Assembly: GCA_003599425.1 (NCBI GenBank)
Contig: QZKC01000083.1
Span: 10,372-74,371 of the forward strand
DNA length: 64,000 nt
Direction: 5' to 3'
DNA from: Nitrospiraceae bacterium
Lineage (GTDB): Bacteria; Nitrospirota; Thermodesulfovibrionia; UBA6902
The position numbers were made by a program, and so were the translations under genes. Positions 11,639-61,021 of this stretch are shown piece after piece (the stretch's first letter is position 1; the number at the start of each line of letters is the position of its first letter). The notes under the pieces are model-generated. The model did not search any database. It worked only from the letters and a program-made list of their open reading frames with translations, and was not told the origin of the DNA.

Positions 11639-11659
11639 GAAGTAGAGAGTAGAGAGAAT

Positions 11660-13252: not shown

Positions 13253-13272
13253 ACAAAAAGGAGGATCAAGTC

Positions 13273-16531: not shown

Positions 16532-16615
16532 TTAACCATTATAGCATTTCGATTATGTAAAAATTATGCATAACGTGAAGCATTCTAAGTTATTTCGTCC
16601 TGCTGTCTGTTCCGT

Positions 16616-17122
16616 TCACCCATTTCCCCTGGCAAGAGGAAAGTCAACAATGAACCGCATATAACGGATCAGAGATTCATCTATACATTTATTGTGGCGG
16701 GTCGCCAGAATCACAATTCCGTTATATTGCTCGATCTTCTGAAGCAGATATTTTAGCTCCATATTGGTATAACGTTCATGACTGTCACTTACTTCCGCAC
16801 GCTTTCCGAACAAAACATCAGCCTCATCAAAAAAAAGCATAGCTCCCGTGGAAGAGGCCTTGCTGAAGATGTCGGACAGGTTCTTTTCTGTCTCAGCGAT
16901 ATACTTACTCACGACTGAAGAAAGATCTATCCTGAAGAGTTCAAGGCCCAGCTCAGCAGCGATTATGTCAGAAGCAATGGTTTGGCCCTTCCCTGAAGGG
17001 TCCGCAAACAGCACGGGAAAACTCTTGCCGGTATACGTCCTGAAGCGGCGTATCAACTCCTCAAACCCCTCGCTTCCGTATATGACTATCCTGGGAATTT
17101 TTTTTACCTCTTCGCTTTCCAA
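16616..17122 (-). CDS. short AAA+ ATPase-family protein with a degenerate P-loop
   Basis: 168 aa. The Walker B/sensor context is intact (LFFDEADVLFGKR, VILATRHN, IVDFPL) and SKYIAETEKNL is conserved. The P-loop position reads DPSGKGQT instead of GPxGxGKT. Confidence 0.6.
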   Translation of the reverse strand: MESEEVKKIPRIVIYGSEGFEELIRRFRTYTGKSFPVLFADPSGKGQTIASDIIAAELGLELFRIDLSSVVSKYIAETEKNLSDIFSKASSTGAMLFFDEADVLFGKRAEVSDSHERYTNMELKYLLQKIEQYNGIVILATRHNKCIDESLIRYMRFIVDFPLARGNG

Positions 17123-45940: not shown

Positions 45941-47140
45941 TCAGCCAAAACCACCGATCATCGTCGATGCTTCAAGAACGGAAAGATCATTGCTGAATTT
46001 TGATACAACAACATCAAAAGAGCTCTTGTACGCTACACCCGTTGTAACAGGATAATTAGCTGACCTTGTCCCTCCAGAGATATAAACTTTTCCTGAAGAA
46101 TCTATGGCCATGGCATTGCCTTCTTCTGTCTCGCTTCCGCCGATAACTGTTGAGGCAAGGAGGACAGAAAGATCGTTACTGAACTTCCTTATGAATATGT
46201 CCGCACCTGTGGTCCCTGCCACAAAAACATTACCATTTGCGTCGATGGCAATGGCGTTACCGATATCCGCAGCAGCTTCGCCTGCAAATGTTGAGGCCAG
46301 AAGCGGGTCAATGATGAGAGGTTTTGTTCTATCATAAGTCCCAACCTCAAAACCGTATGTGACCGAATCCTCGGGTACATTGTATGCAACGTTTATAAAT
46401 TTCTTCTTCCCCTGCTCTTCCTGATAGGCAACAGGCTTCGTCATTTTAAGGATTCCCAGTTCCGTCTCTATCTCAAGCTCCCCGTCTTTGTTTACACGTA
46501 ATCCTTTCACGCCTTCCAGGGATAGCTTAATGTCTTCAACCTCTGCTCCTCGGTTCACAGTAAAGACCTTCTCCACGGAGATTCCGTATGTCCTCAGATT
46601 AAGCTCTATGCCCTTATAGACCTCTCCCAGATTTACTTCCTGCCATGCGGGTATGTTTGACTTCCACTCTTCCCTGGCACCAATAAAGTAATGAACGCTG
46701 GTCTCTGGTTTTTTCAAACCCTTCATGGTGATAGGCTCAGGACATAACAAAGTCTCTTTGACAGCAACAGACTTCTCAACCCTATTATGATCTCCTGAGT
46801 CGCAGTTGCCTGAATTTGTTGTTGGTGGGAGATGTTCTTTCCTGATAAAGGTATAAACCATATCCCCTTTTTCATTTAAAACTACTGTGCCGTCAAATAA
46901 GGCGGCGTAAAATTTGACGGAGGGATCCTTAATCTGTCCCTGATTTTCTATAAAAGGAATCTGGCGGGATAATACGTGCTTCATCAGTAAGCTTTTATCA
47001 TTGCCTGACTGATTGTTCACAATATGACGGACGGAAGATTTCGCCTCAGAGTGATTTACATAAAGAAAAACTGCAACAGATGTAACAAACAAGAGTAAAA
47101 CTATTTTCCCAATGCCCTTCATAGTTAGCACCCGCACCAT
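45941..47140 (-). CDS. N-terminal part of the giant protein (signal peptide, N-terminal domain and first SBBP repeats), ended by an in-frame TGA
   Basis: 399 codons with signal peptide KGIGKIVLLLFVTSVAVFLYVNHSEA. The frame is the same as 32654..45469. The sequence stops mid-repeat (...STMIGGFG-TGA-SDVGRALALGPGDSVYVTGYTHSDDFPTTQGAYD...). Confidence 0.8.
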   Translation of the reverse strand: MVRVLTMKGIGKIVLLLFVTSVAVFLYVNHSEAKSSVRHIVNNQSGNDKSLLMKHVLSRQIPFIENQGQIKDPSVKFYAALFDGTVVLNEKGDMVYTFIRKEHLPPTTNSGNCDSGDHNRVEKSVAVKETLLCPEPITMKGLKKPETSVHYFIGAREEWKSNIPAWQEVNLGEVYKGIELNLRTYGISVEKVFTVNRGAEVEDIKLSLEGVKGLRVNKDGELEIETELGILKMTKPVAYQEEQGKKKFINVAYNVPEDSVTYGFEVGTYDRTKPLIIDPLLASTFAGEAAADIGNAIAIDANGNVFVAGTTGADIFIRKFSNDLSVLLASTVIGGSETEEGNAMAIDSSGKVYISGGTRSANYPVTTGVAYKSSFDVVVSKFSNDLSVLEASTMIGGFG

Positions 47141-47520: not shown

Positions 47521-48426
47521 TTAACTATTTCTCATGGCGCCTAAATACGTGCTGAGATTGATATTCTTGTTCTTTATGGAAAGCTTTTTCCGTATGCTTT
47601 GCCTGTGGCAATTGACCGTTTCTACGGAAAGCTTCATGGTCTTTGCTATTTCTTTTGTCTGATAGCCTGAGACTATGAGGTTGGCTACCTTTATTTCTTT
47701 AGGGCTCAAACCAAAATATTTTGATGACAGGCTGTTTGAGAGAGGAGAGACGATCTCCTTCAGGTTTTTTTCAAGAATGGTTACACAATTTAATACATCC
47801 GGCTGTGTAAGCGTTCTTTTTATTTCTTCCAGATAAGGCATGACCAGATTTCTGACATTAACTAAAATACTTTCTTTGAGTTCTTCACTGTTTTTTTCAT
47901 ACATATTCAGGACCACCTTCAGTGCGGCGTTGAGATCCTCAAGTTCGGAGGTTTTTCTTTTTAATGTTTCCTGTGATGACTGTATCTCCTGTTCCGCTTT
48001 CCTGCGGCGCGAGATATCTCTTACAATGTGAATAAGTCCCTTAAGTTGTTTCTTTCCGTCAATGCGCGGGATGGCTCTTATTTCCATGTGCATATTTAAA
48101 TGAGGCTCAAAGATCTCGAAGGTCGCCGGTCTTTTCGTTTTGATGCACTGACAGCTCTGGCATCCTTTCAACGGTTCATTCGTACCGTGATAATACCTGT
48201 AACACTTTCCAAAGCTCCTTGCCGCCGATAAAATCCCCAATTTTTCTCTTGCAGCCCTGTTGGCGTTTATGATATTGAAATCCCTGTCATGAACAGTGAT
48301 CATATCTGTGATGGTATTAAATATTTCCTCCCACTCGGTCTGAGACTGTAGGACCATATCGACCTTTATTTTTTGTTTTGTGACATCAATCTGTTTTCCC
48401 ATAATAAAAGAGATTATTCTCTCCAC
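47521..48426 (-). CDS. PAS-domain / coiled-coil / LuxR-type (GerE) HTH transcriptional regulator
   Basis: 301 aa. The N-terminal PAS-like segment is EWEEIFNTITDMITVHDRDFNIINANRAA. The C-terminal HTH is LSPKEIKVANLIVSGYQTKEIAKTMKLSVETVNCHRQSIRKKL. Confidence 0.8.
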   Translation of the reverse strand: MERIISFIMGKQIDVTKQKIKVDMVLQSQTEWEEIFNTITDMITVHDRDFNIINANRAAREKLGILSAARSFGKCYRYYHGTNEPLKGCQSCQCIKTKRPATFEIFEPHLNMHMEIRAIPRIDGKKQLKGLIHIVRDISRRRKAEQEIQSSQETLKRKTSELEDLNAALKVVLNMYEKNSEELKESILVNVRNLVMPYLEEIKRTLTQPDVLNCVTILEKNLKEIVSPLSNSLSSKYFGLSPKEIKVANLIVSGYQTKEIAKTMKLSVETVNCHRQSIRKKLSIKNKNINLSTYLGAMRNS

Positions 48427-48608: not shown

Positions 48609-49688
48609 TCAGCGTTCAGGATAGTGAACCCCCTTTTTCTTCCCATCCACCTCGCCCTCCCATGCGCTGAGTCCTCCCCTTAATCCTTTTACATCATATC
48701 CGAGGCTTTTCAGGATAAATGCCGCCGGCATTCCCCATGCTTCCACGCCGCAGTATGTGTAGTATTTTTTCTTTGGGTCCAGTTCTGTATATCGCCTGCG
48801 CAAATATTCGAGCGGGATATTGATAGCACCGGCTATATGCTCATCTTCAAATTGCGGCTCCAGTCTCGTATCAATGAAAATGACATCTTTTAACTCCTCA
48901 GGAGTGATATCTTCCGGATAGACTATTTCCAGAAAGGACGTCTTCATTATCTTTTCAAAATCGGATTGGGAAAGGGCAAGAACGGTGGTCTCTTCCAGTG
49001 CGCGGCAAGTCGCGCTGCGGCGTTTACCCGAGATCAATGCCTCTTCTCCAAATCCCTCCCCTTCACTGAGGACAGCCACCTGTTCAGGCTGTTCTCTGTT
49101 TTCCTTTTTCAGAACAGCAACACGCCCGGACTTGATTACGTAATACAAATCCCCCTTTTCTCCTTCACTAATGATATTTTCTCCAAAGGCATATTTCTTC
49201 TCGATGAATTTATCCGAAAGGGCAAACATCTTTTCGGGCTCGAGAAGAGCAAAAGGCTGAAGAGTTTTTATCTTGTTGTATTCGGAACAGGCATGCGCCT
49301 TTGAACCCAGCATGCAGGAAATAGCGGAATCCATGCCGACCACTTCCTCAAAATCTTTCTTGAAAAGCTTATAAAGCTCTACATCCGTTTTGGCTTTAAC
49401 GGTACAGAAACGGGGGGAACATGTCAGCAATGCCATCTCGCCAAACCCTTCACCGCACTTGATAACAGTAATTTTGGCGTCCTGCCCCCACCTGGTCTTT
49501 TTCTCTACTTCGACTTCTCCTTTCTTGACCAGATAAAATGCATCCGATGGCTCGCCTTCTTTGATAATCTCTTTCCCGGCTGGTAATTCTACTTGATCAA
49601 ATTTTTTGGCAAGCTCTTCCAAAGCACCGTCTGAAAGACGTGAAAAGAAAGAATATAATTTCAGCATGCTTGGCGACAAGATATTCAT
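48609..49688 (-). CDS. tandem cNMP-binding domains + rhodanese-like domain, paralog 1 (degenerate rhodanese loop)
   Basis: 359 aa. Two CAP_ED-type domains are present (GFGEMALLTCSPRFCTV; GFGEEALISGKRRSATCRA). The C-terminal rhodanese fold has IFIDTRLEPQFEDEHIAGAINIP and loop YCGVEAWG, which has the Cys but no Arg. Confidence 0.8.
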   Translation of the reverse strand: MNILSPSMLKLYSFFSRLSDGALEELAKKFDQVELPAGKEIIKEGEPSDAFYLVKKGEVEVEKKTRWGQDAKITVIKCGEGFGEMALLTCSPRFCTVKAKTDVELYKLFKKDFEEVVGMDSAISCMLGSKAHACSEYNKIKTLQPFALLEPEKMFALSDKFIEKKYAFGENIISEGEKGDLYYVIKSGRVAVLKKENREQPEQVAVLSEGEGFGEEALISGKRRSATCRALEETTVLALSQSDFEKIMKTSFLEIVYPEDITPEELKDVIFIDTRLEPQFEDEHIAGAINIPLEYLRRRYTELDPKKKYYTYCGVEAWGMPAAFILKSLGYDVKGLRGGLSAWEGEVDGKKKGVHYPER

Positions 49689-49750
49689 TGGACAACTCCT
49701 TTAAACAATTATTGATGCCAGTAACATTAATGTCCTATCCTCGGATTTTT

Positions 49751-49848
49751 GTCATTTCGGGCTTGACCCGGAATCCAGCGAGAAAAGACTGGATTTTCGA
49801 AGCGAGTCTCCGCGAAGAGTCGCTCCGACCCGCATTCGCGGGAATGAA
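49751..49848. repeat. dispersed palindromic repeat, copy C (extended)
   Basis: gtcatttcgggcttgacccggaatccagcgagaaaagactggattttcgaagcgagtctccgcgaagagtcgctccgacccgcattcgcgggaatgaaat. Confidence 0.75.
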
Positions 49849-49866
49849 ATTACATCGGACATTTCT

Positions 49867-49893
49867 CAAAAAGGGTCACGCCCCCTGTGAACC
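49867..49893 (-). terminator. intrinsic terminator candidate after paralog 2
   Basis: The minus strand reads GGTTCAC-agggggc-GTGACC-cttttt, starting 7 nt after the TGA at 49900-49902. The stem has one bulge. Confidence 0.45.
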
Positions 49894-49899
49894 GCATGA

Positions 49900-50973
49900 T
49901 CACGTAGGCGTAAACGCTGCGTGCACCCCTTCTGATTCACCTTCTACAGGCCCTGTCCAGTTAAGCAATCCTCCTTTTATGCTCATTGCTTCAAAACCAT
50001 GACCGTTCAGGACAAAAGCTGCTATTGCGCTCCTGGCTCCCATGAGGCAATAAACAAAATATTTCTTTAAGGGATCAAGCTCGGCATATCTCTGTCTCAA
50101 CTCATCCAGAGGAATGTGGAGGGCATGCGGGATGCGCTCCTCATTAAATTCCATCTTCATGCGGACATCAAGATAGGTTGGATCATCTTTCTTCAAAACC
50201 TCCTCTGCCGATATCTCTTTCAGAAAAGATGTTTTCAATGTTTTAGCGAAATCATCCTGAGAAAGCGTCCAGACGACAGTATCCTCCAACGCCTGCACCG
50301 TCGCACTCCGTGGAGATTCTGTCAGGAGCGCTTCCTCCCCGAAGCCCTGCCCTTCGTTCAGGATAGCAATATTCCCGGTCTGATCGTCAATATTTTTTTT
50401 AAGAACGGAAACGCTTCCTGACTTGATGATGTAGTAAATATCACCCTTATCACCCTGATTGATAATATTCTCACCTTTGGCAAATTTTTGTTCGCGGAGT
50501 TTTTCCAGGATCACTGCCATTTTTTCGGCTTCAAGCAAAGCAAATGGCTGAAGGGTTTTCATCCGATTATAGCTGGAGAAACTTCTTACATTTTTTTCCG
50601 CCTGCACTGAAAATGCGGAATCCAGACGAACGATCTCTTCAAAGTCCGCTTTCAACAGCGCAAGCAGCCTGACATCGCTTTTTGCGGCAACTGAGCAGCA
50701 TCGGGGAGAACATGTCAAAAGCGCCATCTCACCAAAACCTTTATTGTTGCCAAGAACAGATATTTTTGCTTTTTGTCCCCATTTTGTTTTTTTGAATACT
50801 TCGACTTCGCCTTCTTTTACGAGATAAAAAGCATTTGCCGGGGCATCTTCACTTATAATTTCAATTCCGGCTGGAAACTCTACGGCATGAAGTTTTTTTG
50901 AAATAGCCTCAAGGGCTGCATCAGACAGGTAGGAAAAATAGCAGTACTTTCTTAGTTCCCTGTAGTCAGACAT
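49900..50973 (-). CDS. tandem cNMP-binding domains + rhodanese domain, paralog 2
   Basis: 357 aa. Contains GFGEMALLTCSPRCCSV and GFGEEALLTESPRSATVQA. The rhodanese active-site loop is YCLMGARS (Cx4R). Confidence 0.8.
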   Translation of the reverse strand: MSDYRELRKYCYFSYLSDAALEAISKKLHAVEFPAGIEIISEDAPANAFYLVKEGEVEVFKKTKWGQKAKISVLGNNKGFGEMALLTCSPRCCSVAAKSDVRLLALLKADFEEIVRLDSAFSVQAEKNVRSFSSYNRMKTLQPFALLEAEKMAVILEKLREQKFAKGENIINQGDKGDIYYIIKSGSVSVLKKNIDDQTGNIAILNEGQGFGEEALLTESPRSATVQALEDTVVWTLSQDDFAKTLKTSFLKEISAEEVLKKDDPTYLDVRMKMEFNEERIPHALHIPLDELRQRYAELDPLKKYFVYCLMGARSAIAAFVLNGHGFEAMSIKGGLLNWTGPVEGESEGVHAAFTPT

Positions 50974-51072
50974 TTACCACCCCCACACATCTAACCAATA
51001 CAGCGGAAGATTAATCCCCCTTTAAAAAGAACTATAAAGGGAAATTTTGTAATTTTGTTTGTTGCGTTTATA

Positions 51073-51309
51073 TTATTTATTTAATAATTCGTCTATCTTC
51101 CCCTGATCAAACCCGGTTACGGCTTCATTATTGATCAATGTTACCGGAAGGGTCCTGATCCCCATTTTCCCTAGATCGTAAATGGCGGTGGGATCAGTTG
51201 CAAGATTGCGTTCAGTGTATGTTACGCCTTTTTGTGAAAGATACTCTTTCACTTTATTACAGTAAATTCAACCGACCTGACTGAAGACAATGATATTTTT
51301 TTCTGCCAT
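51073..51309 (-). CDS. glutaredoxin-like (YruB/NrdH-type) candidate selenoprotein with a U-x-x-C redox motif
   Basis: Not in the ORF track. ATG at 51309 with SD GAGGGG upstream. Translation: MAEKNIIVFSQVG-[TGA 51268-51270]-IYCNKVKEYLSQKGVTYTERNLATDPTAIYDLGKMGIRTLPVTLINNEAVTGFDQGKIDELLNK-TAA (51073-51075). It has thioredoxin-fold landmarks (beta1 IIVF, cis-Pro TLPV, GF). The TGA sits exactly at the first Cys of CxxC. Confidence 0.7.
51234..51252 (-). promoter_or_regulatory. candidate bacterial SECIS hairpin
   Basis: The mRNA reads UGA-auuuacuguaauaaa-GUGAAAG-AGUAU-CUUUCAC. This is a perfect 7-bp stem starting 15 nt after the UGA. The 5-nt apical loop has G at position 2 followed by U. Confidence 0.55.
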
Positions 51310-51375
51310 GGGCAAGCACCCCTCGTAATTTTAGTATTTTATTATAAAGTTACAACCTGTTAAATATCAATAAAA

Positions 51376-51990
51376 TTATTTTGTGCTGTACTCTAATTTA
51401 TTGTTCTGCTTAGTAACCGCACCGATCATGTTTGTGCTTACCTCGTCTAATCCTTCCTGGAGGGCGCTGCTTAACCCCTTTGCGAGGCTCGAAAAACTCC
51501 GGTCAGCGAGTTTCAGCTTTTTATGAATTGTGCCGCTGTATAAGCGCTGGTTGTCAGGTGAGTGGGGATCCGCATCAAAGACAAGAACGCCAAAAGAATC
51601 ATTCCCCTCATCGAGCCTTTCAAACTGTTTCAGATTTATCCTCAGCGAATAAAAACCTTCCGCTGCAATATAGTCTGCCCTTACCTCTTTGAAAATGCCT
51701 GCCCTGGAGAAGGTGTCTTTAAACTGATTCTTTACGATCCTGCTCGGCGACGCCTCCCACTTTGAATACTTTGATATCTCGACCTGATAAGGAGTACTCC
51801 TGTACGCAATGTACGACTGTTTGAGATACTGTTCCGAATTGATACTTATATTCACTGATCCATCTGTCCTTATTCTGACAGGGCCTTTTTCATCAGGCAT
51901 ATAAAGAGTATAAGTTCTTGTCTCAGGCATTGTGCATGCCGCGAAATAAAAAACACATAAAAATGCAATACACTTGCGCATGTCACTCAT
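51376..51990 (-). CDS. PqiC/YmbA-like (DUF330) ABC-transport auxiliary lipoprotein
   Basis: The lipobox is FYFAAC|T after MSDMRKCIAFLCV. The body (YTLYMP..., YQVEISKYSKWEASPSRIVKNQF, RLNLKQFE) fits the DUF330 pattern. The likely start is the ATG at 51990 (track start 52020). Confidence 0.6.
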   Translation of the reverse strand: MSDMRKCIAFLCVFYFAACTMPETRTYTLYMPDEKGPVRIRTDGSVNISINSEQYLKQSYIAYRSTPYQVEISKYSKWEASPSRIVKNQFKDTFSRAGIFKEVRADYIAAEGFYSLRINLKQFERLDEGNDSFGVLVFDADPHSPDNQRLYSGTIHKKLKLADRSFSSLAKGLSSALQEGLDEVSTNMIGAVTKQNNKLEYSTK

Positions 51991-52170
51991 CCGCTTTCTC
52001 CCCTTCCGGGTAAATAACACTCCCAGGGTTTATTTTTTATTTCCTGCAGAAGTTCCCAGAGATCTTCAGTGGTATCATTCAGGTTGGTGATGAGGACCGT
52101 TATATTCCTTGACTGAAAGTCAATCGCATTGCTCAGACTTTCTCCCGATAAAGCCGAAGAAGTTCTCAGC
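51987..52170 (-). pseudogene. 3'-terminal remnant of an MlaD/MCE-family gene
   Basis: A stop-free 60-codon stretch with no start codon ends ...NLNDTTEDLWELLQEIKNKPWE...G-TGA, an MlaD-like C-terminal L..IK.NPW pattern. Its TGA overlaps the PqiC-like ATG (ggATGAgt). The upstream part is replaced by the 3' end of the STAS gene. Confidence 0.3.
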
Positions 52171-52495
52171 TCTTGAGTGCATCGTCCATCTCCCCCACAA
52201 TCTCAAATATACTGTCCAGCTTTGAGAACCTGAATATTTCCATGATCCCCTCGTTCATGTGTACGAGTTTCAGGCGTCCGCCATATCTCTTCATGACCTT
52301 GAGTATCTCTACAAACGTTGCAATGCCTGAGCTGTCCATATAAGGGACCTCTATCAGGTTAACCAGCACTATTTGTGGCTTTCTGGATGTCAGGCGCATC
52401 AGTTCCTCCCTGAGTTCATGCGCGGAATACATGTCTATATCTCCGGAAACCGAGACAAGTTTATGGCCCTTATGTTCAGCAGTTTCAATCTTCAT
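52166..52495 (-). CDS. STAS-domain anti-sigma-factor antagonist (RsbV/SpoIIAA-like)
   Basis: 109 aa. The phosphorylatable serine context is VPYMDSSGIATFVEI. It overlaps the upstream kinase gene by 11 nt. Confidence 0.85.
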   Translation of the reverse strand: MKIETAEHKGHKLVSVSGDIDMYSAHELREELMRLTSRKPQIVLVNLIEVPYMDSSGIATFVEILKVMKRYGGRLKLVHMNEGIMEIFRFSKLDSIFEIVGEMDDALKS

Positions 52496-52910
52496 GCTTC
52501 TCCCTGTTTTTTGTGTATCTGGTCAGGATCAGTCTGTTGCCTTTCTTCTTTTTCTCATCAAAGGCAACGACATCAAAGGCCCTTCTTATCAGATGTACAC
52601 CAAGTCCGCCGGGCCTTACATCATCGAGGTTCCTGCCTGCAATATATTCAGGATGCATTTTCCCGCTGTCCTCTATTACAACCTCAAGCTTACTTTTCGT
52701 GAACCGAAACCTTACAACTATCCTTTTCCCTGTGTCACCCTCATAAGCATGCTTAATCACATTGGAACACGCTTCATCTACGGCAAGCTTTATATCTTCC
52801 GCCTCAGCGGCTGACAGACCATGCAGTTCCGTCATCTTCACAGATACAGCCCTGACAACGGACAGATACTTTGGATGAGAGGGGATAGTTATGATCGTTG
52901 AATCTTTCAT
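52485..52910 (-). CDS. anti-sigma regulatory factor, Ser/Thr protein kinase (RsbW/SpoIIAB-like)
   Basis: 141 aa with a HATPase_c_2 pattern: LAVDEACSNVIKHAY (N-box), EDSGK and RPGGLGVHLIRRAFD (G-box). Confidence 0.85.
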   Translation of the reverse strand: MKDSTIITIPSHPKYLSVVRAVSVKMTELHGLSAAEAEDIKLAVDEACSNVIKHAYEGDTGKRIVVRFRFTKSKLEVVIEDSGKMHPEYIAGRNLDDVRPGGLGVHLIRRAFDVVAFDEKKKKGNRLILTRYTKNREKHED

Positions 52911-52920
52911 CTTATCTGAG

Positions 52921-53094
52921 ATTATTCATAAACCTGGAGCAAGTATGGTGAGAAGAACATATTGAGCAATACCTTAGCATCTAAAATTCTAATATATTCT
53001 GTTCGCACGTGCATTGTTCAGGTATTTTAATAATCCATTGCGTTCAAGATGTTTCTCGAACCATGGCTTGCTCCAAACCAGGTTTATGAATAAT
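52921..53094. repeat. long-range inverted repeat (arms of about 28-34 nt) bracketing about 120 bp; a MITE-like element or large RNA structure
   Basis: The left arm is attattcataaacctggagcaagtatgg (52921-52948). The reverse complement of the right arm (53061-53094) is attattcataaacctggtttggagcaagccatgg. The first 17 nt are identical, then a 5-nt insertion, then agcaag is shared. Confidence 0.6.
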
Positions 53095-53099
53095 CAAGA

Positions 53100-53765
53100 C
53101 TATACCCTTCTGATCTCTACAAGGGTCAGATCATCCACCCTTTCTGCGCCCTTTGAAAAATCATTTACATGATCGACCACTCTGTGAATGATCTGCCTGT
53201 CCTTCATATGCTTTTTTATGAACCTGGTTATCCTGTCAAACCCTATTCTCTTACCGCGTCTGTCTTTCGCATCAAAAATCCCGTCAGTTAATAATATCAG
53301 CCTGTCGCCTTTTTTTAGCGACAGGGCTGTAACAGGATAGTCTGCCGGCAATATTCCGAGAGGCGGCCCTGCCGGTACGCTCATCACCTTTGCCTTTCCC
53401 TCGGAAAGTTGTCTGCTGCCGCGTCCTCAATGATGAGCGGTTTCAGGTTTTCCGCAACCCAGCCCGCGATACCTTTCCCCATATCAAGGACGACCTTCTC
53501 TTTTAATGTTTTCGACATTGCTCTTTGACCGCACAGCGACCTCAAATTCGAGCTTATTCGTTCCCCTGTTATAAAGAAGGATCGAACACGCTTCCGCATT
53601 CATTACCTTTTCCGCCTTCTCCATGACAAGGGTGAGGAGTTTGTTAAAATCAAGCGTTGATGATATGATCGCAGAGTCCTCTATAAGGGTGCTGAGATCT
53701 TGCACCTTTTTTTCGAGAGCTGCAAGATAGTCCCTCGGGACAGCCACCACAGCTTTTTTGGGCAT
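53100..53765 (-). pseudogene. decayed GAF-PP2C (RsbU/SpoIIE-type) phosphatase gene: one frameshift plus an internal deletion
   Basis: Three consecutive ORF fragments cover it. The first is 53484-53765, the GAF N-terminal part ...KLEFEVAV. The second is 53384-53599, where a +1 shift near 53533 continues as ...KVVLDMGKGIAGWVAENLKPLIIEDAAADNF. The third is 53100-53387, which holds only the last ~95 aa of a PP2C domain (PLGILPADYPVTALSLKKGDRLILLTDGIFDA...DDLTLVEIR). The rest of GAF and most of PP2C are absent. Confidence 0.65.
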
Positions 53766-53833
53766 GCATATGGGATAACAGGTTTCAATAAAGATTTCAA
53801 GACAAATGATCGTTTAAGCAGGCAATAATTTTT

Positions 53834-54400
53834 TTGGGCAATAAGATTTCTATTGTCATAAGCTGCCGGGAGAATGTAAAATGCTATAGCTTAATGGACG
53901 GGAGATATTCATTGCTGGACAGGTTACTTAAATGGCACTTTGATCCGGGTAAGGAACACGAGCTCAAAATCTTAAACGAGGTTTCGCTGTTCAGAGGGCT
54001 GAAGAAGCACCTCCTGAGAAAGTTGCTGACAGACCTGTTTGAGAAGGAGTATACGGCAGGAGAAACTGTTTTTTCAGCAGGTGACACCGGAAAGGCGCTG
54101 TATGTTGTCATGTCGGGCTCTGTGAAAATCATCAAACAGGCGAATCCGGAGGAACGCCTCCTCACAACACTGGGGCCCGGTTCATATTTTGGGGAACTGG
54201 CGCTTATCAGGGAGTCTCCACGTTACGCATCAGCAATCGTTGAGGAAAATGCAAGACTGCTGATCATGTATAAATCCTATTTTGACAGTCTTATGAAAGG
54301 CAACAACACGATCTCATCCCTTATCCTTATGAATCTTGCTGAATCTCTTTCAACTTACATAAGCAGCAACCGTTGTTTTGACGACAACGGCAAAAGATGA
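53834..54400 (+). CDS. stand-alone cNMP-binding domain protein
   Basis: 188 aa from a TTG start; the ATG at 53894 is the alternative. The CAP_ED pattern is LFRGL...GETVFSAGDTGKALYVVMSGSVKI...FGELALIRESPRYASAIV. Confidence 0.75.
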   Translation: MGNKISIVISCRENVKCYSLMDGRYSLLDRLLKWHFDPGKEHELKILNEVSLFRGLKKHLLRKLLTDLFEKEYTAGETVFSAGDTGKALYVVMSGSVKIIKQANPEERLLTTLGPGSYFGELALIRESPRYASAIVEENARLLIMYKSYFDSLMKGNNTISSLILMNLAESLSTYISSNRCFDDNGKR

Positions 54401-54438
54401 CAAGCATGGTCCTTTGTAATTATTAATGTGGCGGTAAA

Positions 54439-55563
54439 TTGGAAATGCCTGAACATGACAAAGAGCCAATAATAAATGAGATAAACAGGATCTACCATCA
54501 AATGCCACGGTGGGTGATCCAGCTCCTTCTTGCTGGAATTTTTATTTTCTTTGCATATCATACTGTCAGCCTTCTGATCACTCTTCTCCTTTCATTCATC
54601 CTTGCATATATAGTGAACAATCTCATTAATATAGCCGAGTCCATGGGGATTAAAAGATATCATGCTGTCGTAATGTTCTATGTTCTTATGCTGGTACTGC
54701 TCATAGTGGCAGAGATGATCCTGGCGCCTTACCTGCAGAAGGAAGTGGAACATTACTATGCCAGGCTTCCTGAATTTTCTGCCAGAATTGAAAATATCCT
54801 GACAAATGCAGCCGGCGGCAGGATAAGCAATTATCCGCTTTCAGATGAGATCATTCGAAAGATGCTGAATACTGTCATGAGGCCCGGCATTATGATCGAC
54901 AAAACACTCAATTTTTCTGACATCGTTAACAAAACCACATCACTTTTTTTCGGAGCGGTACTTGTTCCTTTCTTTGCATTCTTTCTGCTCAGGGATTGGC
55001 CCGTGATACTGAAAAAAGTCATGTCATGGGTTCCTCCGCAATATGTCGAAACAACGGTATCGCTTCTTTCCGAGATAAACATTCTGGTCGGGAAGTATCT
55101 GAGGGGACTGACGCTGGATTGCATTCTGGTAGGTATCACGGCAACGGTTGGATTATCACTGTTCGGCATTAACTATCCGATCTCTCTGGGGATACTTACC
55201 GGTGTTGCAAATGTTATACCGTATTTCGGCCCTGTAATGGCCTGCGCTGCCGCCAGCCTGATCGCGTTCACGCAATTTAACAGTACAATCGCGGTACTGA
55301 ATATGATCATCCTGTATATAGCTATCAGGCTGATCGACGATCTTGCAATTCAGCATGTTACACTTGGCAAGATCATTAAACTCCATCCCATGCTGCTTGT
55401 CATAACCATCATGTCCGGCTATATGCTCTTTGGTGTTATTGGTATGGTAGTCGCTGTGCCTGCTGTATCGGTCATTCAAAAGGTTCTGAGTATTATCATT
55501 GAGAACCGGAAGCACCTTGCCGGGGAAAATGATTCGATCCGTCCAGTTAATTTTCCAGTATGA
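54439..55563 (+). CDS. AI-2E family (PerM/UPF0118) transporter
   Basis: 374 aa with about 8 hydrophobic helices. Family-typical segments are YLRGLTLDCILVGITATVGLSLFGINYPISLGILTGVANVIPYFGP. Confidence 0.75.
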   Translation: MEMPEHDKEPIINEINRIYHQMPRWVIQLLLAGIFIFFAYHTVSLLITLLLSFILAYIVNNLINIAESMGIKRYHAVVMFYVLMLVLLIVAEMILAPYLQKEVEHYYARLPEFSARIENILTNAAGGRISNYPLSDEIIRKMLNTVMRPGIMIDKTLNFSDIVNKTTSLFFGAVLVPFFAFFLLRDWPVILKKVMSWVPPQYVETTVSLLSEINILVGKYLRGLTLDCILVGITATVGLSLFGINYPISLGILTGVANVIPYFGPVMACAAASLIAFTQFNSTIAVLNMIILYIAIRLIDDLAIQHVTLGKIIKLHPMLLVITIMSGYMLFGVIGMVVAVPAVSVIQKVLSIIIENRKHLAGENDSIRPVNFPV

Positions 55564-55837
55564 GGGTTGTCCAGCACCACCATCAGGCTTTTCAATGACT
55601 GAAGAGAACCTCACACGGCAGGATAAAAGTGGCTGGGGCGGGAGGAAACCTGCAGGACAACGAGGATATCTTATAACTCATGCAGGAACAGGCACTGCCC
55701 CAAATGCCTTTTTCCTCAGAAAGGAGCAATGGCTTGAAGCGAGGAACAAATATCTGCTGCCCATACAATTGTTTATCGCTCGCCAAAAGTATTCTGATAG
55801 ATCCTTTCAGGGGTCACGCCCCTTCAGCGCCGCACGA

Positions 55838-56923
55838 TCACGTAGGTTTAAAGGGAGTATGAATGCCGTCACTTCCTTTCTCCAACGGACCGGGCCAGTT
55901 CAGTATCCCGCCTTTGATGCTCCTGGCATTAAATCCCTGACTGTTCAGCAGAAACGCGGCCGTTGCGCTTCTGGCGCCCAAAAGACAATATGCATAATAT
56001 TCCCTTGAATTATCCAGTTCAGCATATCTTTTTCTGATCTCATCAAGAGGAATATTGATCGCTTCGGGAATATGCTCTTCGTCGAATTCCATCTTCATCC
56101 TCACGTCAAGGAAGGTGATGTTCCCCTTTGCTCCATTGAGCACTGCAAGTGGATCAACCTCCTTGAGGAAAGAGGATTTGACAACAGAGTCAAAGTCAGA
56201 TTTTGCAAGCACCCACAATACAGTCTCGTCAATTGTCCGAACTGTAGCGCTGCGCGGCGAATCAGTTAAAAGCGCCTCTTCGCCAAAAGCCTGTCCCTCT
56301 TCAAGTATAGCTACATGTTCAGGCTCTTCGCCCAGCATCTTTTTCAGCACCTCAACTTTTCCGGACTTTACTATGAAATACTCATCGCCCCTTTCCCCCT
56401 GTGCTATTATTGTCTGTCCAAGTGTAAATCTCTTTTCCTTTAATTTGCCTGTCAACGCGGACATCTTCTCAGGCTCCAAAAGGGCAAAGGGCTGCAACAT
56501 TTTCAGTTCATTGAACAGGTAGAAGCGCTGGTGACGGTCTACCATCGCTCCTGCAAAAGCAGAATCTGCCCTGATTATTTCTTCAAATTCGGGCTTCGGG
56601 AGTTTCAAAAGTGTAACGTCTGTCCTGGCAGTAACCGAGCAGAAACGGGGTAAGCATGTAAGCAATGCCATCTCACCAAAACTCTCTCCCCGCCCTGAAA
56701 CTGCTATCGTAGCAGCCTGCCCTGTATCTGTCTTTTTTGTTACTTCTACTTCGCCTTTGGATATCAGATAGAAAGCATCCGCAGGTGCTCCTTCTTTTAT
56801 GATATGCGTACCCGCGGATAAGTTAACGTGTTCAAGTTTTTGCGATAACGCTTCCAACGCTCCATCAGAGAGGCACGAAAAGTAACAGTATTGCCTCAGG
56901 TCTTTATAGGATGTCTGTTCCAT
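55838..56923 (-). CDS. tandem cNMP-binding domains + rhodanese domain, paralog 3
   Basis: 361 aa. Contains SFGEMALLTCLPRFCSV and AFGEEALLTDSPRSATVRT. The rhodanese loop is YCLLGARS. The C-terminus and 3' flank are shared with paralog 2. Confidence 0.8.
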   Translation of the reverse strand: MEQTSYKDLRQYCYFSCLSDGALEALSQKLEHVNLSAGTHIIKEGAPADAFYLISKGEVEVTKKTDTGQAATIAVSGRGESFGEMALLTCLPRFCSVTARTDVTLLKLPKPEFEEIIRADSAFAGAMVDRHQRFYLFNELKMLQPFALLEPEKMSALTGKLKEKRFTLGQTIIAQGERGDEYFIVKSGKVEVLKKMLGEEPEHVAILEEGQAFGEEALLTDSPRSATVRTIDETVLWVLAKSDFDSVVKSSFLKEVDPLAVLNGAKGNITFLDVRMKMEFDEEHIPEAINIPLDEIRKRYAELDNSREYYAYCLLGARSATAAFLLNSQGFNARSIKGGILNWPGPLEKGSDGIHTPFKPT

Positions 56924-56992
56924 AAGTCTGAACTCCTTTTATACGTCTTAAATTTCTCTTTTGCATTTCCGTTCTTTTGCACTGCATGCTTA

Positions 56993-58078
56993 TCAATTTA
57001 CTGTTGCAGGTTGGTGAATGCCGTCACCTGTGCGTTCAGTCGGCCCGTCCCACGCGCTCAATCCTCCCCGGAGAGCGCTTGCGTTATATCCCATGCTTTT
57101 CATGAGGAATGCTGCTGTCATTCCCCTGGAGTCATTTGTGCAGTACGTGTAATATGTCTTTGCCTTATCGAGTTCTCCGAATTTCTGCCGTAAAATTTCA
57201 ATTGGGATATTTATAGCCCCTGCGATATGCTCTTCCTCATATTCAGGGGTTATCCTTGCATCAATAAAAACCACTTTGCTCCTTTCCTCTTCCGGTATCT
57301 CTTCAGGAAAGGCATTTTCCACAAATGATTTTCTCAATATGCCATCAAAGGTTGCTTTATCCAGAACCAGCACGGTTGTCTCGTCAATCGCCTGTACTGT
57401 TGCGTTTCTCGGCATTTCCCTTATTATTGCCTCTTCACCAAATCCCAGTCCGCTGCCCAATTCCGCCACCTGTTCAGGAGGGTTATCCCCCTTCTTCTGA
57501 ATAACCTCAACACGGCCTGATCTGATAATGTAATATTCACTGCCCTTATCACCCTGCGTGATGATCACCTCACCGGGCGAGTATTTTTTTCCCTTCATTT
57601 TATCTATAAGGGTGAGCATCTTCTCGGGTTCAATGAGCGCAAACGGCTGAAGGGTTTTCAATGAAATAAATTCAGCATAATTCTGTGACTGTCTACCCAA
57701 TAAATTCGAAAAAGATGTGTCAAGGCTGATTATTTCTTCAAAATCCTCTCTGCTGATTTCAGAAAGCATGACGTCAGTCTTTGCCGTAACTGTACTGCTT
57801 CGGGGAAGATTGGTAATCAAAGCCATTTCGCCAAAGCTTTCCCCTGCGCCAGATGAAGAGAGTTTCGCGTCTTGTCCGAATTCGGTCTTCTTGGTAACAT
57901 CCACCTCCCCTTTGCACACAAAATATAAAGATTTCCCCTGCTCTCCCTCTTTGATAATTTTTGTCCCTACTGGGAACTCAACCTGTTTGATTTTACGGGA
58001 GAGCACCTCCAGGGCACCATCCGACAATGAGGAAAAATAGCTGTAATTTTTCAGGTCATTAACAGATAGTTTTTTCAT
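56993..58078 (-). CDS. tandem cNMP-binding domains + rhodanese domain, paralog 4
   Basis: 361 aa. Contains SFGEMALITNLPRSSTV (canonical, without the Cys pair) and GFGEEAIIREMPRNATVQA. The rhodanese loop is YCTNDSRG. Confidence 0.8.
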   Translation of the reverse strand: MKKLSVNDLKNYSYFSSLSDGALEVLSRKIKQVEFPVGTKIIKEGEQGKSLYFVCKGEVDVTKKTEFGQDAKLSSSGAGESFGEMALITNLPRSSTVTAKTDVMLSEISREDFEEIISLDTSFSNLLGRQSQNYAEFISLKTLQPFALIEPEKMLTLIDKMKGKKYSPGEVIITQGDKGSEYYIIRSGRVEVIQKKGDNPPEQVAELGSGLGFGEEAIIREMPRNATVQAIDETTVLVLDKATFDGILRKSFVENAFPEEIPEEERSKVVFIDARITPEYEEEHIAGAINIPIEILRQKFGELDKAKTYYTYCTNDSRGMTAAFLMKSMGYNASALRGGLSAWDGPTERTGDGIHQPATVN

Positions 58079-58635: not shown

Positions 58636-58878
58636 TTATGCTTGCACAGAACAGCTCCAGAGCGTATCGGGAGCAATATCGATATTGCCCGGCCAAACCA
58701 CAGTGCCGTATTGAACGGACGCTTTGAAGAATAGCGGAGAGTTGAAGAGTTTGATAAAAGGTTTTCTGTCAAAGTACGGTTTCATGTCAAAAATACGTCT
58801 TTCGCCATTTTCAAAAACAAGCTCCAGGGTATAATCGTCATGAGTTTTTACGCTGATGACATCAAGCAACGCTTCCAT
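58636..58878 (-). CDS. DUF2442-family small protein
   Basis: 80 aa. VKTHDDYTLELVFENGERRIFDMKPY...G.VVWPGNIDIAPDTLW matches the DUF2442 pattern. It is paired with the upstream DUF4160 gene across a 12-nt gap. Confidence 0.7.
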   Translation of the reverse strand: MEALLDVISVKTHDDYTLELVFENGERRIFDMKPYFDRKPFIKLFNSPLFFKASVQYGTVVWPGNIDIAPDTLWSCSVQA

Positions 58879-58890
58879 AAATAGTCTCCT

Positions 58891-59163
58891 TTATTGAAGT
58901 GGGGCGATGCGAAATGGTTCATCGCCATTAACGGCAAGTTCCCAGTCTGCCATTAGCTCATCCCTATGAATATCGATCCAGACCTGCACCATCCGAAGTT
59001 GGCGGGCTGGAAAGTCGCCAGCAAGAACACTGCCATCGTCAATCGCAATTGACGCCTTCCTGCCTTGGTATCGAACATGAATATGCGGTGTATGATGCTG
59101 CTCGTTATCACCATAAAACATTGATACGAGAATTCCGAAGAACATTGAGATTGTCGGCATCAA
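58891..59163 (-). CDS. DUF4160-family small protein
   Basis: 90 aa. PTISMFFGILVSMFYGDNEQHHTPHIHVRYQG is the DUF4160 signature. Confidence 0.75.
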   Translation of the reverse strand: MMPTISMFFGILVSMFYGDNEQHHTPHIHVRYQGRKASIAIDDGSVLAGDFPARQLRMVQVWIDIHRDELMADWELAVNGDEPFRIAPLQ

Positions 59164-59389: not shown

Positions 59390-60790
59390 TTAAAAATAAA
59401 AGATCGCAGATGTCATTAACGTGTGCTGATTAACATCGGGATCGCTGTCCGTAGCAGCAAGGAAATCCGTTGTGATATTCCTTCCGAATCTGTATTGATA
59501 AGACATATCCAGCGCAATCCGGTCGCTGGCAAAGCCGGTTCCGAAGGAGATGCCGTAGAAATCATCGAGATGCCCTGTCGCGGGTTCCGGATCATAGAAC
59601 AGTCCGAATCTTAGGGGGACAGTATACTTTGCTTTTATAAAGAGATATTCCATTCCAAGACGCGCCTGGGTTGTATCTTTTAAACGGCCTTTGCTGATGG
59701 GAACGCTGTTCAGTGGATTTGTTTCATTACCTTCCGAGTTTCTAAGTACGAACCTTGACCATTCAGTAATGTACATATCAGCCGCAATTGTGAGACTGTC
59801 GGAATGTCTGTAAGAAATGCCCACTCCGTATGACGCCGGCATCCTCATCGTAAATTTCTCCCTGGTAGCTGTAGTTTCGGGTCCATTAATTGTTTCTGAT
59901 GGGGGGAGCATTGAAACATATTCAAGCCTGTTTATGTCATAATTGGTTACCTTTCTTGCTTTTTCAAGGTCCGCGTCAAATGCCGTTTTATAGACCCCGC
60001 CGATGATCAATGAGTCCGTGATTGACCACAATACCCCAAAGTGCCAGTTGTCCCCCTCAAACCTGTTTTCTTCTTCAATGGTTGTACTTGATTCCGTATA
60101 AACCGTCACTCCATTTATGGGCGCAGGGAGCGGCATCAGCGTTGTCTTGGACTCCCTTCGAATATTCCTGCTGTCCCATCCGTTTGCTCCGAAAAAGTTG
60201 TCCCATATATTATAGGTCGCTCCTAAAGTCAGCCCCGGTAGTAACTGAACAGCAAATGCAGGTGACAGGGTATATAGAAAGCCATCCTGCTGAAATTCAT
60301 GACTGCCGCTTTCAGTCAGCACAGACACAGAACTGCCGGGATCCACGGAAGACGAGCCTATAAAATCAAATTTATAATCTTTATTCATTTCGAAAAGCCT
60401 TTGGTAATTAAGGGAGATTATCATGTTCCTGTTCAGGAAAACGAAGGGATATGCAATGCTGGCATAATTAAGACCGTCCGCGTCCATTTTCTGGACACTG
60501 TCTATTTCTGGATGCTGATCGGAAGAATACTTTTGCCTTCTATGAAAATATGAGTACACAGCCGACATCTCGGGCTTTTCAAGTTGTATGAGGCCGGCCG
60601 GGTTCCATGAAGCAGCGGTTGCGTCATCAGCAACGCCGATAAAGGCGCCGCCCATTCCAGTCGCACGCGCTCCGGAACCCACAGGATTCAAGGTAGATGA
60701 AAATTCTGTCTGCTGGGCATTCGCGCTCTTAATGAAAATCAGACTTGCAAAAAGAAAAAGAATAATAAGGAATATTCTTGATCCGGACAT
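59390..60790 (-). CDS. FadL/TodX/PorV-like outer-membrane beta-barrel protein
   Basis: The likely start is the ATG at 60790 (MSGSRIFLIILFLFASLIFIKSANA|QQ), preceded by AAAGGA. The N-terminal signature is GSGARATGMGGAFIGVADDATAASWNPAGL and the C-terminus is aromatic (SAIFYF). The track start at 60952 runs into a dispersed repeat. Confidence 0.7.
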   Translation of the reverse strand: MSGSRIFLIILFLFASLIFIKSANAQQTEFSSTLNPVGSGARATGMGGAFIGVADDATAASWNPAGLIQLEKPEMSAVYSYFHRRQKYSSDQHPEIDSVQKMDADGLNYASIAYPFVFLNRNMIISLNYQRLFEMNKDYKFDFIGSSSVDPGSSVSVLTESGSHEFQQDGFLYTLSPAFAVQLLPGLTLGATYNIWDNFFGANGWDSRNIRRESKTTLMPLPAPINGVTVYTESSTTIEEENRFEGDNWHFGVLWSITDSLIIGGVYKTAFDADLEKARKVTNYDINRLEYVSMLPPSETINGPETTATREKFTMRMPASYGVGISYRHSDSLTIAADMYITEWSRFVLRNSEGNETNPLNSVPISKGRLKDTTQARLGMEYLFIKAKYTVPLRFGLFYDPEPATGHLDDFYGISFGTGFASDRIALDMSYQYRFGRNITTDFLAATDSDPDVNQHTLMTSAIFYF

Positions 60791-60910
60791 TTTGTAATTT
60801 CCTTTCGTTGTTGTTACTAATATTGTCCTTTGTAAAGCCTCATAATACATTATCCTCATGCCCGAAGTTCTTTCTCCTCGGCGAATCGCCTGGGGCGATA
60901 AGCGGGCATC

Positions 60911-60947
60911 CAGCCTGGATTCCCGCTTACTGACTGCGGGAATGACA
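60911..60947. repeat. dispersed palindromic repeat, partial copy D
   Basis: ccagcctggattcccgcttactgactgcgggaatgac, which is the right half of the repeat family. Confidence 0.6.
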
Positions 60948-61021
60948 AACAATGTGGCTTTATTAATGAAGTTCTTAATAACTCCCCTGCACCCTTTTAA
61001 ATAACTCCCCCTAAACCCCTT

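Follow-up and report, generated by a model that had tools for sequence, protein, structure and literature searches.

Cyclic-nucleotide-binding (CNB) domains control kinases, channels, transcription factors, exchange factors and an acetyltransferase, the last in mycobacterial Pat, where a cyclic nucleotide monophosphate (cNMP) relieves the autoinhibition of a bacterial enzyme. Rhodaneses are usually viewed as unregulated carriers of sulfane sulfur, and to our knowledge no CNB domain has been shown to control sulfur transfer. Here, we describe four genes, P1 to P4, found in a 64,000-nucleotide stretch of contig QZKC01000083.1 from a Nitrospiraceae bacterium (the whole stretch is called the window; coordinates in Table 1), each encoding two consecutive CNB domains (CNB-A and CNB-B) followed by a rhodanese domain. 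Clustering and a neighbour-joining tree divide these proteins and their relatives into three types, named here with their rhodanese loops: type B (C-L-x-G-A-R-S; P2 and P3), type A (C-T-N-D-S-R-G; P4) and type A' (C-G-x-E-A-W-G; P1). We propose, at a probability of about 0.45, that such CNB-CNB-rhodanese proteins would be cNMP-gated persulfide carriers or sulfurtransferases.

The nearest structures are the regulatory regions of PKA-R and PKG, which likewise have two consecutive CNB domains joined by a B/C helix and canonical phosphate-binding cassettes. Unlike these, P1-P4 are bacterial and have neither a dimerisation/docking domain nor an inhibitor sequence; PKA-R acts on a separate kinase subunit, whereas P1-P4 carry a covalently attached rhodanese, and their CNB-A differs from that of PKA-R in its Cys-rich cassette and in an Ala at the Gly169 equivalent. 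Mycobacterial Pat/KATmt (PDB 4OLL, 4ONU, 4ORF) has the same layout of an N-terminal CNB and a C-terminal catalytic domain in one chain, is a sequence match to CNB-B (E-value (E) 1.6e-9, plus partial NCBIfam matches) and is the best functional precedent for a CNB-controlled bacterial enzyme, although it has a single CNB and a GNAT fold and chemistry and, unlike P1-P4, is experimentally characterised. The single-domain sulfurtransferases GlpE and PspE, and the rhodanese domains of CoA-disulfide/persulfide reductase (CoADR-RHD, Npsr) and of fusions with persulfide dioxygenase (BpPRF), have the C-x-x-G-x-R-[ST] loop in common with type B but are not fused to nucleotide sensors; for the type A/A' loops (CTNDSRG, CGxEAWG), no characterised counterpart was identified. 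Family 2B encapsulin shells, with their cNMP-binding insertion, and desulfurase encapsulin operons also link CNB domains to cysteine desulfurase and rhodanese in bacteria, and encap_f2b is the top partial NCBIfam match of the CNB domains (82-108 bits against a cut-off of 400, CNB part only), but the capsid fold is absent here and no encapsulin genes were found in the neighbourhoods examined. A published census lists CNB attached to a 'Rhodanese homology domain' in its class 23 'Other_bacterial', with cassette consensus GEMALLDGEPRSATVVA (Kannan et al., 2007). The window proteins fit this class; as a bare catalogue entry, it says nothing of a tandem, of pairing, of cysteines in CNB-A or of function, and the A/B pairs, the acidic type A loop and the Cys-rich CNB-A cassette appear to be undescribed features of the family.

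P1-P4 correspond to the NCBI metagenome-assembled genome (MAG) proteins C4538_10425, C4538_10430, C4538_10480 and C4538_10485, with P3 identical to C4538_10480, and their starts are tightly bounded, the stop-to-stop frames reaching at most 15 nucleotides past the ATG. Pfam cNMP_binding is found twice in each protein (147-154 bits over the whole protein, cut-off 27.5, E 1e-43 to 8e-46), both stretches spanning positions 2-88 of the 89-position profile PF00027, and Rhodanese once (50-59 bits, E 8e-14 to 7e-16). The four align collinearly over their full length at 44-58% pairwise identity, far beyond chance; an earlier note on this DNA, made by a model from the letters alone, had described four collinear minus-strand paralogs of 357-361 residues with this domain order, and that description is exact. 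Judged by these matches and a structure prediction, P1-P4 are soluble bacterial proteins of ~360 residues with a PKA-R-like CNB tandem, a single catalytic-type rhodanese and a short, conserved, disordered tail.

Profiling of the architecture across genomes, which the earlier note had called for, returned at least 269 clusters at 90% identity in a database search with P3 (E<=1e-10), with ligand-contact and catalytic residues conserved. Among the best 120 of these clusters, all members have both Pfam domains and nearly all are ~360 residues long; most come from Nitrospirae/Nitrospirota MAGs and a few from Planctomycetota, Leptospirales and Spirochaetia. Their names are generic or absent ('hypothetical protein', 'cyclic nucleotide-binding domain-containing protein'; most are unnamed), and some carry the JGI label 'CRP-like cAMP-binding protein/rhodanese-related sulfurtransferase'. 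Residue counts below refer to 120 members (44 type A/A' and 76 type B) or, where stated, to a 111-sequence family alignment. A profile search of metagenome contigs with the four-paralog alignment gave two close loci only, L086 and L087, the rest being unrelated tandem-CNB proteins, and a profile search of 1.84 billion representatives gave 4218 matches at E<=1e-30 that were dominated by multi-CNB proteins and yielded no clean family count. The CNB-rhodanese module also occurs in fusions with a SulP sulfate permease plus STAS (P0221), STAS alone (P0241), REC plus an HD-GYP-type HD_5 domain (P0161), hemerythrin (P0054) and an 800-residue region without a Pfam match (P0265).

In the rhodanese domain, Cys313 is present in all of P1-P4 and in 119/120 members (44/44 type A, 75/76 type B), within loops that read C-G-V-E-A-W-G in P1, C-L-M-G-A-R-S in P2, C-L-L-G-A-R-S in P3 and C-T-N-D-S-R-G in P4. 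The type B loop, CL[LVM]GARS, has its G, R and S in 76/76 members and fits the classical persulfide-loop pattern C-x-x-G-x-R-[ST]; type B rhodanese domains match the PDB entries 3ICR, 8A56, 3NTA, 5VE3 and 2JTQ at E 1e-8 to 1e-5. The type A and A' loops depart from this pattern, P4 having an invariant acidic residue and P1 a Trp in place of the Arg together with an acidic residue of its own. Between Nitrospirota and spirochaetes, the type A loop hardly varies, which argues for a specific function rather than decay, and both non-classical loops are probably functional. Behind the rhodanese domain, the tail W343-x-G345-P ... [DE]-G353-[IV]-H355-x-P is conserved, yet it is disordered in the AlphaFold2 prediction (P3 model, predicted local distance difference test (pLDDT) 85.4, predicted template modelling score (pTM) 0.71).

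Residues 1-250 match the tandem CNB of PKA-R and PKG in the PDB at 25-30% identity (phmmer E ~1e-31 to 1e-33, Foldseek E 5e-25); Foldseek and sequence searches of the PDB found no structure that covers all three domains, only tandem-CNB proteins, with a template modelling (TM) score of 0.3 over the whole query. Canonical domains of the type that binds cyclic adenosine monophosphate (cAMP) have the cassette FGE[LIV]AL...R[ANQV] and a co-conserved Gly169 in the beta2-beta3 loop, the cassette Glu contacting the ribose 2'-OH and the Arg the phosphate (Kannan et al., 2007). CNB-B has all of these features: F213, G214, E215, E216 and R224 are invariant in the 111-sequence alignment, the cassette pattern is FGEEAL...R-[SN]-A-T-V, and the Gly169 equivalent, G179, is found in 119/120 members (43/44 clade A, 76/76 clade B). 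CNB-A has an invariant G83 and R93, with E84 in 116/120; the Gly169 equivalent is Ala in 92/120, and the residue after the Arg is a non-canonical F, C, S or Y. Counted from the Arg (R), the CNB-A cassette has a Cys at R-3 in 77% of the family against 1% of 379 background cassettes, at R+1 in 25% against 0.5% and at R+2 in 61% against 3.4%; in P2 it reads T-C-S-P-R-C-C-S-V. Another Cys, Cys13 in the N-terminal 3-10 region, is present in 93% of type B, so that type B proteins have three or four clustered Cys (C13, C90, C94 and/or C95). Through the Cys-rich CNB-A and Cys13, thiol redox state or persulfidation could influence the binding of nucleotide.

The four genes lie as two pairs 4.9 kb apart, pair 1 being B1/A' and pair 2 A/B2. 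The earlier note had likewise seen two adjacent pairs but took the four proteins for equivalent paralogs; each pair is an A/B hetero-pair. It also proposed a four-fold amplification at the locus, which the identities contradict. Orthologs of P1 in L001, L002, L086 and L167 (numbers denote family loci outside the window) are 75-80% identical to it and those of P2 in the same loci 70-76%; overall, orthologs of P1-P4 in other MAGs are 69-84% identical against 44-58% among the window paralogs, and on these values the window therefore holds two anciently diverged hetero-pair lineages, B1/A' and A/B2, with no local four-fold expansion. Recent duplication or gene conversion was considered and rejected, as the DNA repeats among the paralogs are only 60-82% identical over stretches of 25-56 nucleotides, a short and weak likeness that fits old divergence.

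Adjacent, co-directional B->A pairs with gaps of 60-142 nucleotides are found at eight other loci (L001, L002, L003, L008, L080/081, L082/083, L086 and L167). B1 is always paired with A' (window pair 1, L001, L002, L086, L167) and B2 is paired with A (window pair 2, L008, L080); the B and A subclades are congruent, and the pair therefore evolves as a unit. Two pairs occur together in none of 22 other family loci, which were compared by tblastn or by Pfam-annotated gene lists. Pair 2 has the order A->B in the window (55838-58078), and its orthologs in L008 (2971-5201) and L080 (2975-5215) have the order B->A, all co-directional; one possible history of this order is a tandem duplication whose outer copies were later lost.

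As we picture the mechanism, a class III cyclase would supply the cyclic nucleotide that binds at least the canonical CNB-B, whose C-helix runs straight into the rhodanese and would move as it does in PKA-R and mycobacterial Pat, altering access to Cys313 or its reactivity. Cys313 would form a persulfide and hand its sulfane sulfur to an acceptor, so that a second messenger would govern the transfer of sulfane sulfur. The classical persulfide former would be type B, beside which type A/A' would serve as a specialised partner or acceptor; from the adjacent, co-diverging B->A pairs we infer joint action of A and B, for instance in a donor-acceptor relation or within a heteromer. Thiol redox or persulfides may provide a further input through the Cys-rich pocket of CNB-A. 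An extended form makes each A/B pair a two-way switch, in which cNMP bound to CNB-B gates the formation or transfer of the type B persulfide, sulfur passes to the acidic-loop type A partner, and persulfidation of C90/C94/C95 with C13, or a disulfide there, in turn blocks or tunes nucleotide binding. We think it improbable as a whole; if it is true, a persulfide relay controlled by a second messenger would be without precedent, as would a CNB ligand pocket that is itself a thiol-redox sensor. The coupling of a cNMP sensor to a rhodanese domain is real and conserved, while we infer every functional step of the signalling, that is, the identity of the ligand, the direction of allosteric control, the sulfur transfer itself and the cooperation of A with B.

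Several observations count against cNMP-gated sulfur transfer. About half of the loci have a lone A or a lone B gene (L004-L007, L010, L084, L087, L166, L168, L169, L171 and L172), so that pairing is common but not obligatory, and neither can an A/B heteromer be. The Asp/Glu of the type A loop and the missing loop Arg of A' are unusual for persulfide stabilisation and could mean a non-catalytic role, and CNB-A, departing as it does from the canonical cAMP signature, may not bind nucleotide. The gene neighbourhoods of the family vary between loci, and sulfur genes stand beside it in only 3-4 of ~22, two of which are the same arrangement in related MAGs. A full-text search of the literature on cNMP or cyclic-nucleotide-binding together with rhodanese gave only encapsulin, phosphatome and unrelated papers and no characterisation of a family member; apparent cAMP mentions in a 2026 ISME J paper on sulfur disproportionation proved to be part of the word 'Campylobacterota'. 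The earlier note's view that the route is uncharacterised agrees with this search, but the fusion itself had already been listed in the census cited above and annotated by JGI.

Among the 22 other loci, signalling genes recur beside the family. In L167, L169 and L170, the next gene downstream encodes a CRP-type regulator (cNMP_binding plus HTH_Crp_2), and CNB-like open reading frames (ORFs) occupy that same position in L001, L006 and L009. L167 has a CHASE2 class III cyclase 3.8 kb downstream of its pair, with FecR, while L082 has a class II phosphodiesterase and L168 and L171 have CNB-only and CNB-GAF proteins near the family. A protein of 430-478 residues without a Pfam match, a FecR-domain protein and TPR/BBP2_2 proteins follow the CRP-type or CNB-only gene in four loci (Table 1), and a 444-residue protein without a Pfam match is in the same position in L171 (12488-13822), where the stretch examined has no FecR gene; the set looks like a cyclase-associated envelope module. 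MlaEFDC adjoins family genes in L082, L168 and L171. L082 repeats the order seen in the window, a B->A pair, then a PAS-GerE gene (44-45% identical), then a giant surface protein, there a CarboxypepD_reg protein 47% identical over 661 residues to the giant ORF of the window. That ORF, of 4271 residues, has internal repeats and, by eye in the translation, a metalloprotease-like HExxH at its end; a DUF7948/SBBP beta-propeller protein precedes it.

Sulfur and thiol genes accompany the family in some lineages. In two Nitrospirota MAGs, L168 (3769-7862) and L171 (3768-7800), a lone type B gene is divergent from a cluster resembling sulfide oxidation genes, with TauE and a flavoprotein like SQR type III (E 1e-81), to which L168 adds two DsrE, DsrH and an ArsR-type regulator and L171 a small rhodanese and a GRDB-like fragment; downstream, both have MlaEFDC, a CNB-only protein, the 444-residue protein without a Pfam match and a CNB-GAF protein. 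L170, which shares its contig with L002, has ahead of its B1/A' pair a thioredoxin reductase gene (TIGR01292, E 1e-92) and, immediately next to it, one for a candidate selenocysteine (Sec) glutaredoxin; MoaA and MoaC precede the lone type A gene of L166, and DsrC lies 7 kb from the family in L080. The earlier note's suggestion of a thiol, persulfide or selenium link is borne out in part by L168, L171 and L170, but its selenium side is thin: apart from the window, L002/L170 alone has the Sec-glutaredoxin beside the family, and it is missing from L001 and L167, which have the same pair type. The comparison of neighbourhoods that it had suggested finds CRP-type, cyclase/FecR and Mla-like genes recurring, whereas STAS/RsbW and the AI-2E permease, which it had read as the family's context, stand beside the family in 0/22 other loci.

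Table 1. Coordinates of the four CNB-CNB-rhodanese genes, of other features of the window and of one gene module in other loci.
Feature	Position	Strand	Details
P1, type A' CNB-CNB-rhodanese	48609..49688	-	359 aa; downstream gene of pair 1; Pfam cNMP_binding x2 + Rhodanese
P2, type B (B1) CNB-CNB-rhodanese	49900..50973	-	357 aa; upstream gene of pair 1; Pfam cNMP_binding x2 + Rhodanese
P3, type B (B2) CNB-CNB-rhodanese	55838..56923	-	361 aa; downstream gene of pair 2; Pfam cNMP_binding x2 + Rhodanese
P4, type A CNB-CNB-rhodanese	56993..58078	-	361 aa; upstream gene of pair 2; Pfam cNMP_binding x2 + Rhodanese
Glutaredoxin-like candidate selenoprotein	51073..51309	-	78 codons, UxxC; Pfam Glutaredoxin E 6.4e-12, U read as C
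ABC_trans_aux lipoprotein, accessory component of Mla-type ABC systems	51376..52020	-	Pfam
STAS anti-sigma antagonist	52166..52495	-	TIGR00377, 81 bits; DSSG motif
RsbW-like anti-sigma kinase	52485..52910	-	HATPase_c_2, E 1.7e-25
GAF-PP2C (RsbU/SpoIIE-type) phosphatase remnant	53100..53765	-	ORF fragments; SpoIIE profile positions 99-191 of 192
Single-domain cNMP-binding protein	53834..54400	+	Pfam
AI-2E family transporter	54439..55563	+	Pfam; 39 nt after cNMP-binding gene
PAS-LuxR (GerE) regulator	47521..48426	-	Pfam; directly downstream of P1
PDZ-GAF class III adenylate/guanylate cyclase	25241..27724	-	Pfam Guanylate_cyc E 8e-28; 21 kb from pair 1
492-aa protein	23697..25175	-	weak metallo-beta-lactamase match; 23 kb from pair 1
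4271-aa ORF	32654..45469	-	
DUF7948/SBBP beta-propeller protein	45941..47140	-	
DUF4160/DUF2442 small-gene pair	58636..59163	-	directly upstream of P4
FadL/TodX-type outer-membrane protein	59390..60952		
Multihaem cytochrome c552 (NrfA-like)	3703..5397	-	
NapA/NapG/NapH/NapB-like periplasmic nitrate reductase cluster	8867..13821	+	
No-Pfam/FecR module, L167	11371..15112		
No-Pfam/FecR module, L168	12459..13793 and 16231..17013		
No-Pfam/FecR module, L169	11731..13984		
No-Pfam/FecR module, L170	12048..14180		

Between the pairs, every gene that the earlier note had named is present (the Sec-glutaredoxin candidate, STAS, RsbW, the single cNMP-binding protein and AI-2E), as is the PAS-LuxR regulator beside pair 1; its inventory had overlooked the ABC_trans_aux lipoprotein and the GAF-PP2C remnant. 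The glutaredoxin-like ORF lies 100 nucleotides upstream of P2 and has an in-frame TGA at 51270-51268 as the first position of UxxC, followed by a hairpin at 51252-51234 (z-score -2.6). Its ortholog in L002 (8425-8658) keeps both the TGA, at the corresponding codon, and the 8-bp stem-loop, unchanged; the gene called there begins past the TGA (64 residues). With a UGA at the redox Cys, conserved in the ortholog, and a stem-loop downstream, this neighbour is a candidate selenoprotein.

The GAF-PP2C remnant has its GAF N-terminus split over two frames, has lost ~160 codons and keeps only the C-terminal half of PP2C, which would leave the STAS/RsbW genes of the window without their usual phosphatase unless the break is an assembly error; no sigma factor gene is adjacent to them. 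A perfect 18-nucleotide inverted repeat (GATTATTCATAAACCTGG / CCAGGTTTATGAATAATC, at 52920-52937 and 53078-53095, arms 140 nucleotides apart) lies between the PP2C remnant and RsbW, and a third copy (81% match, 53209-53229) lies inside the remnant; the repeat may be a small element, mobile or regulatory, that is connected with the disruption of the PP2C gene. On its other side, pair 2 is preceded by a DUF4160/DUF2442 small-gene pair, which stands before a FadL/TodX-type outer-membrane protein; such pairs are often a sign of mobile or rearranged regions. The region looks rearranged, because ABC_trans_aux stands without MlaEFD (present in L082), the PP2C is dead, the gene order of pair 2 is inverted and a DUF4160/DUF2442 pair adjoins P4.

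Elsewhere in the window, the PDZ-GAF cyclase is a candidate source of cyclic nucleotide for P1-P4. Homologs of the adjoining 492-residue protein, at 59-60% identity, are encoded in L001 (~12273) and L002 (~20395) a few kb downstream of the B1/A' pair, a long-range synteny. With at most one mismatch allowed, the CRP box TGTGA-N6-TCACA has 2 matches in the window where 2.6 are expected, and none upstream of the pairs, which does not indicate CRP-box control. Genes for a Tll0287-like/HAMP histidine kinase and an OmpR-type regulator separate the nitrate reductase cluster from the NrfA-like cytochrome c552 gene; the organism probably respires nitrate or nitrite.

The proteins could instead work in the reverse direction, the rhodanese Cys and the Cys-rich CNB-A sensing sulfane sulfur or thiol redox in PKA-R-like regulatory subunits or cNMP buffers; persulfidation would then shift nucleotide affinity, or partner binding through the disordered tail, with no net sulfur transfer as output. 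The family-specific Cys at R-3, R+1 and R+2 and the frequent C13 of type B speak for this, as do the conserved but disordered ...[DE]-G-[IV]-H-x-P tail, the kinase regulatory subunits among the nearest structures, the mostly signalling neighbours (CRP-type regulators, cyclase, FecR, PAS-LuxR) and the C-terminal fusion of the module to sensory or signalling domains (hemerythrin, REC-HD_5). However, type B has the loop of a textbook catalytic sulfurtransferase, its G, R and S being invariant, and no partner protein is conserved across loci; we regard sensing in this direction as possible but doubtful, and it is compatible with cNMP-gated sulfur transfer rather than exclusive of it. The CNB domains might also bind neither cAMP nor cyclic guanosine monophosphate (cGMP) and have another ligand, a metal or Fe-S cluster held by the CNB-A Cys, or nothing, as in FNR, CooA, NtcA and CprK, and serve as a scaffold for the rhodanese. 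Deviations from the CNB signature go with other ligands (Kannan et al., 2007), and CNB-A has such deviations in the lost Gly169 equivalent and the residue after its Arg, next to the clustered type B Cys C13, C90, C94 and/or C95. Yet CNB-B is canonical throughout, G179 included, CNB-A keeps the Gly-Glu and Arg contacts that FNR, CooA and NtcA lack (Kannan et al., 2007), and cyclase, phosphodiesterase and CRP genes occur in the neighbourhoods, so a ligand other than a cyclic nucleotide, or none, seems quite improbable to us.

Two further readings follow the earlier note more closely. P1-P4 might be inputs or outputs of the STAS/RsbW module that they bracket, relaying cNMP and sulfur status to an anti-sigma cascade, and STAS does occur in the SulP-STAS-CNB-rhodanese fusions. 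But STAS and RsbW genes are absent at the 22 other loci, and the bracketing is therefore a feature of this genome only, a local coincidence; the PP2C gene has a frameshift and a truncation, the module has no sigma factor gene beside it, and the region looks rearranged. A Rosetta-stone link from the window STAS to the fusion protein P0241 was tried and dropped, because the window protein has no detectable similarity to its transporter-type STAS (E 5.3). STAS, RsbW, the dead PP2C, the CNB-only protein and AI-2E are a local arrangement outside the CNB-rhodanese system, and a role of P1-P4 in partner switching is very unlikely. Equally hard to credit is a Cdc25/Acr2-like phosphatase or arsenate reductase, or a selenium-trafficking protein, under cNMP control. 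Type A loops do end in R-G as Cdc25 loops do, P2 and its L002 ortholog both have a Sec-glutaredoxin gene upstream, and there are weak, sub-threshold NCBIfam matches to the SelU/MnmH N-terminal rhodanese and to a 'rhodanese-related (seleno)protein' model, but these score 5- to 20-fold under the cut-offs, and L001 and L167 have no Sec-glutaredoxin. Rhodaneses reportedly have a six-residue loop where phosphatases and arsenate reductases have a seven-residue C-x5-R loop, and all loops of the family are C-x4-[RW], one residue short of the latter. None of P1-P4 matches the Cdc25 active-site motif CE[F/Y]SxxR (PMC2887360), and a phosphatase-type function, which the earlier note had allowed for, is therefore unlikely. 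Its interpretation is partly supported overall, the amplification, partner-switching, phosphatase and selenium ideas failing or holding weakly.

Even if the function of P1-P4 proves ordinary, the reading of the locus is corrected to two old pairs with no conserved link to partner switching. The family is tractable, as its members are small soluble proteins with one invariant catalytic Cys, canonical and Cys-decorated pockets, natural A/B pairs and natural fusions to a SulP anion transporter, to hemerythrin and to a REC-HD-GYP-type module. If cNMP-gated sulfur transfer is true, a cNMP-gated rhodanese would join second-messenger signalling to persulfide trafficking, in carriers that are anaerobic Nitrospirota with an energy metabolism centred on sulfur and nitrogen compounds.

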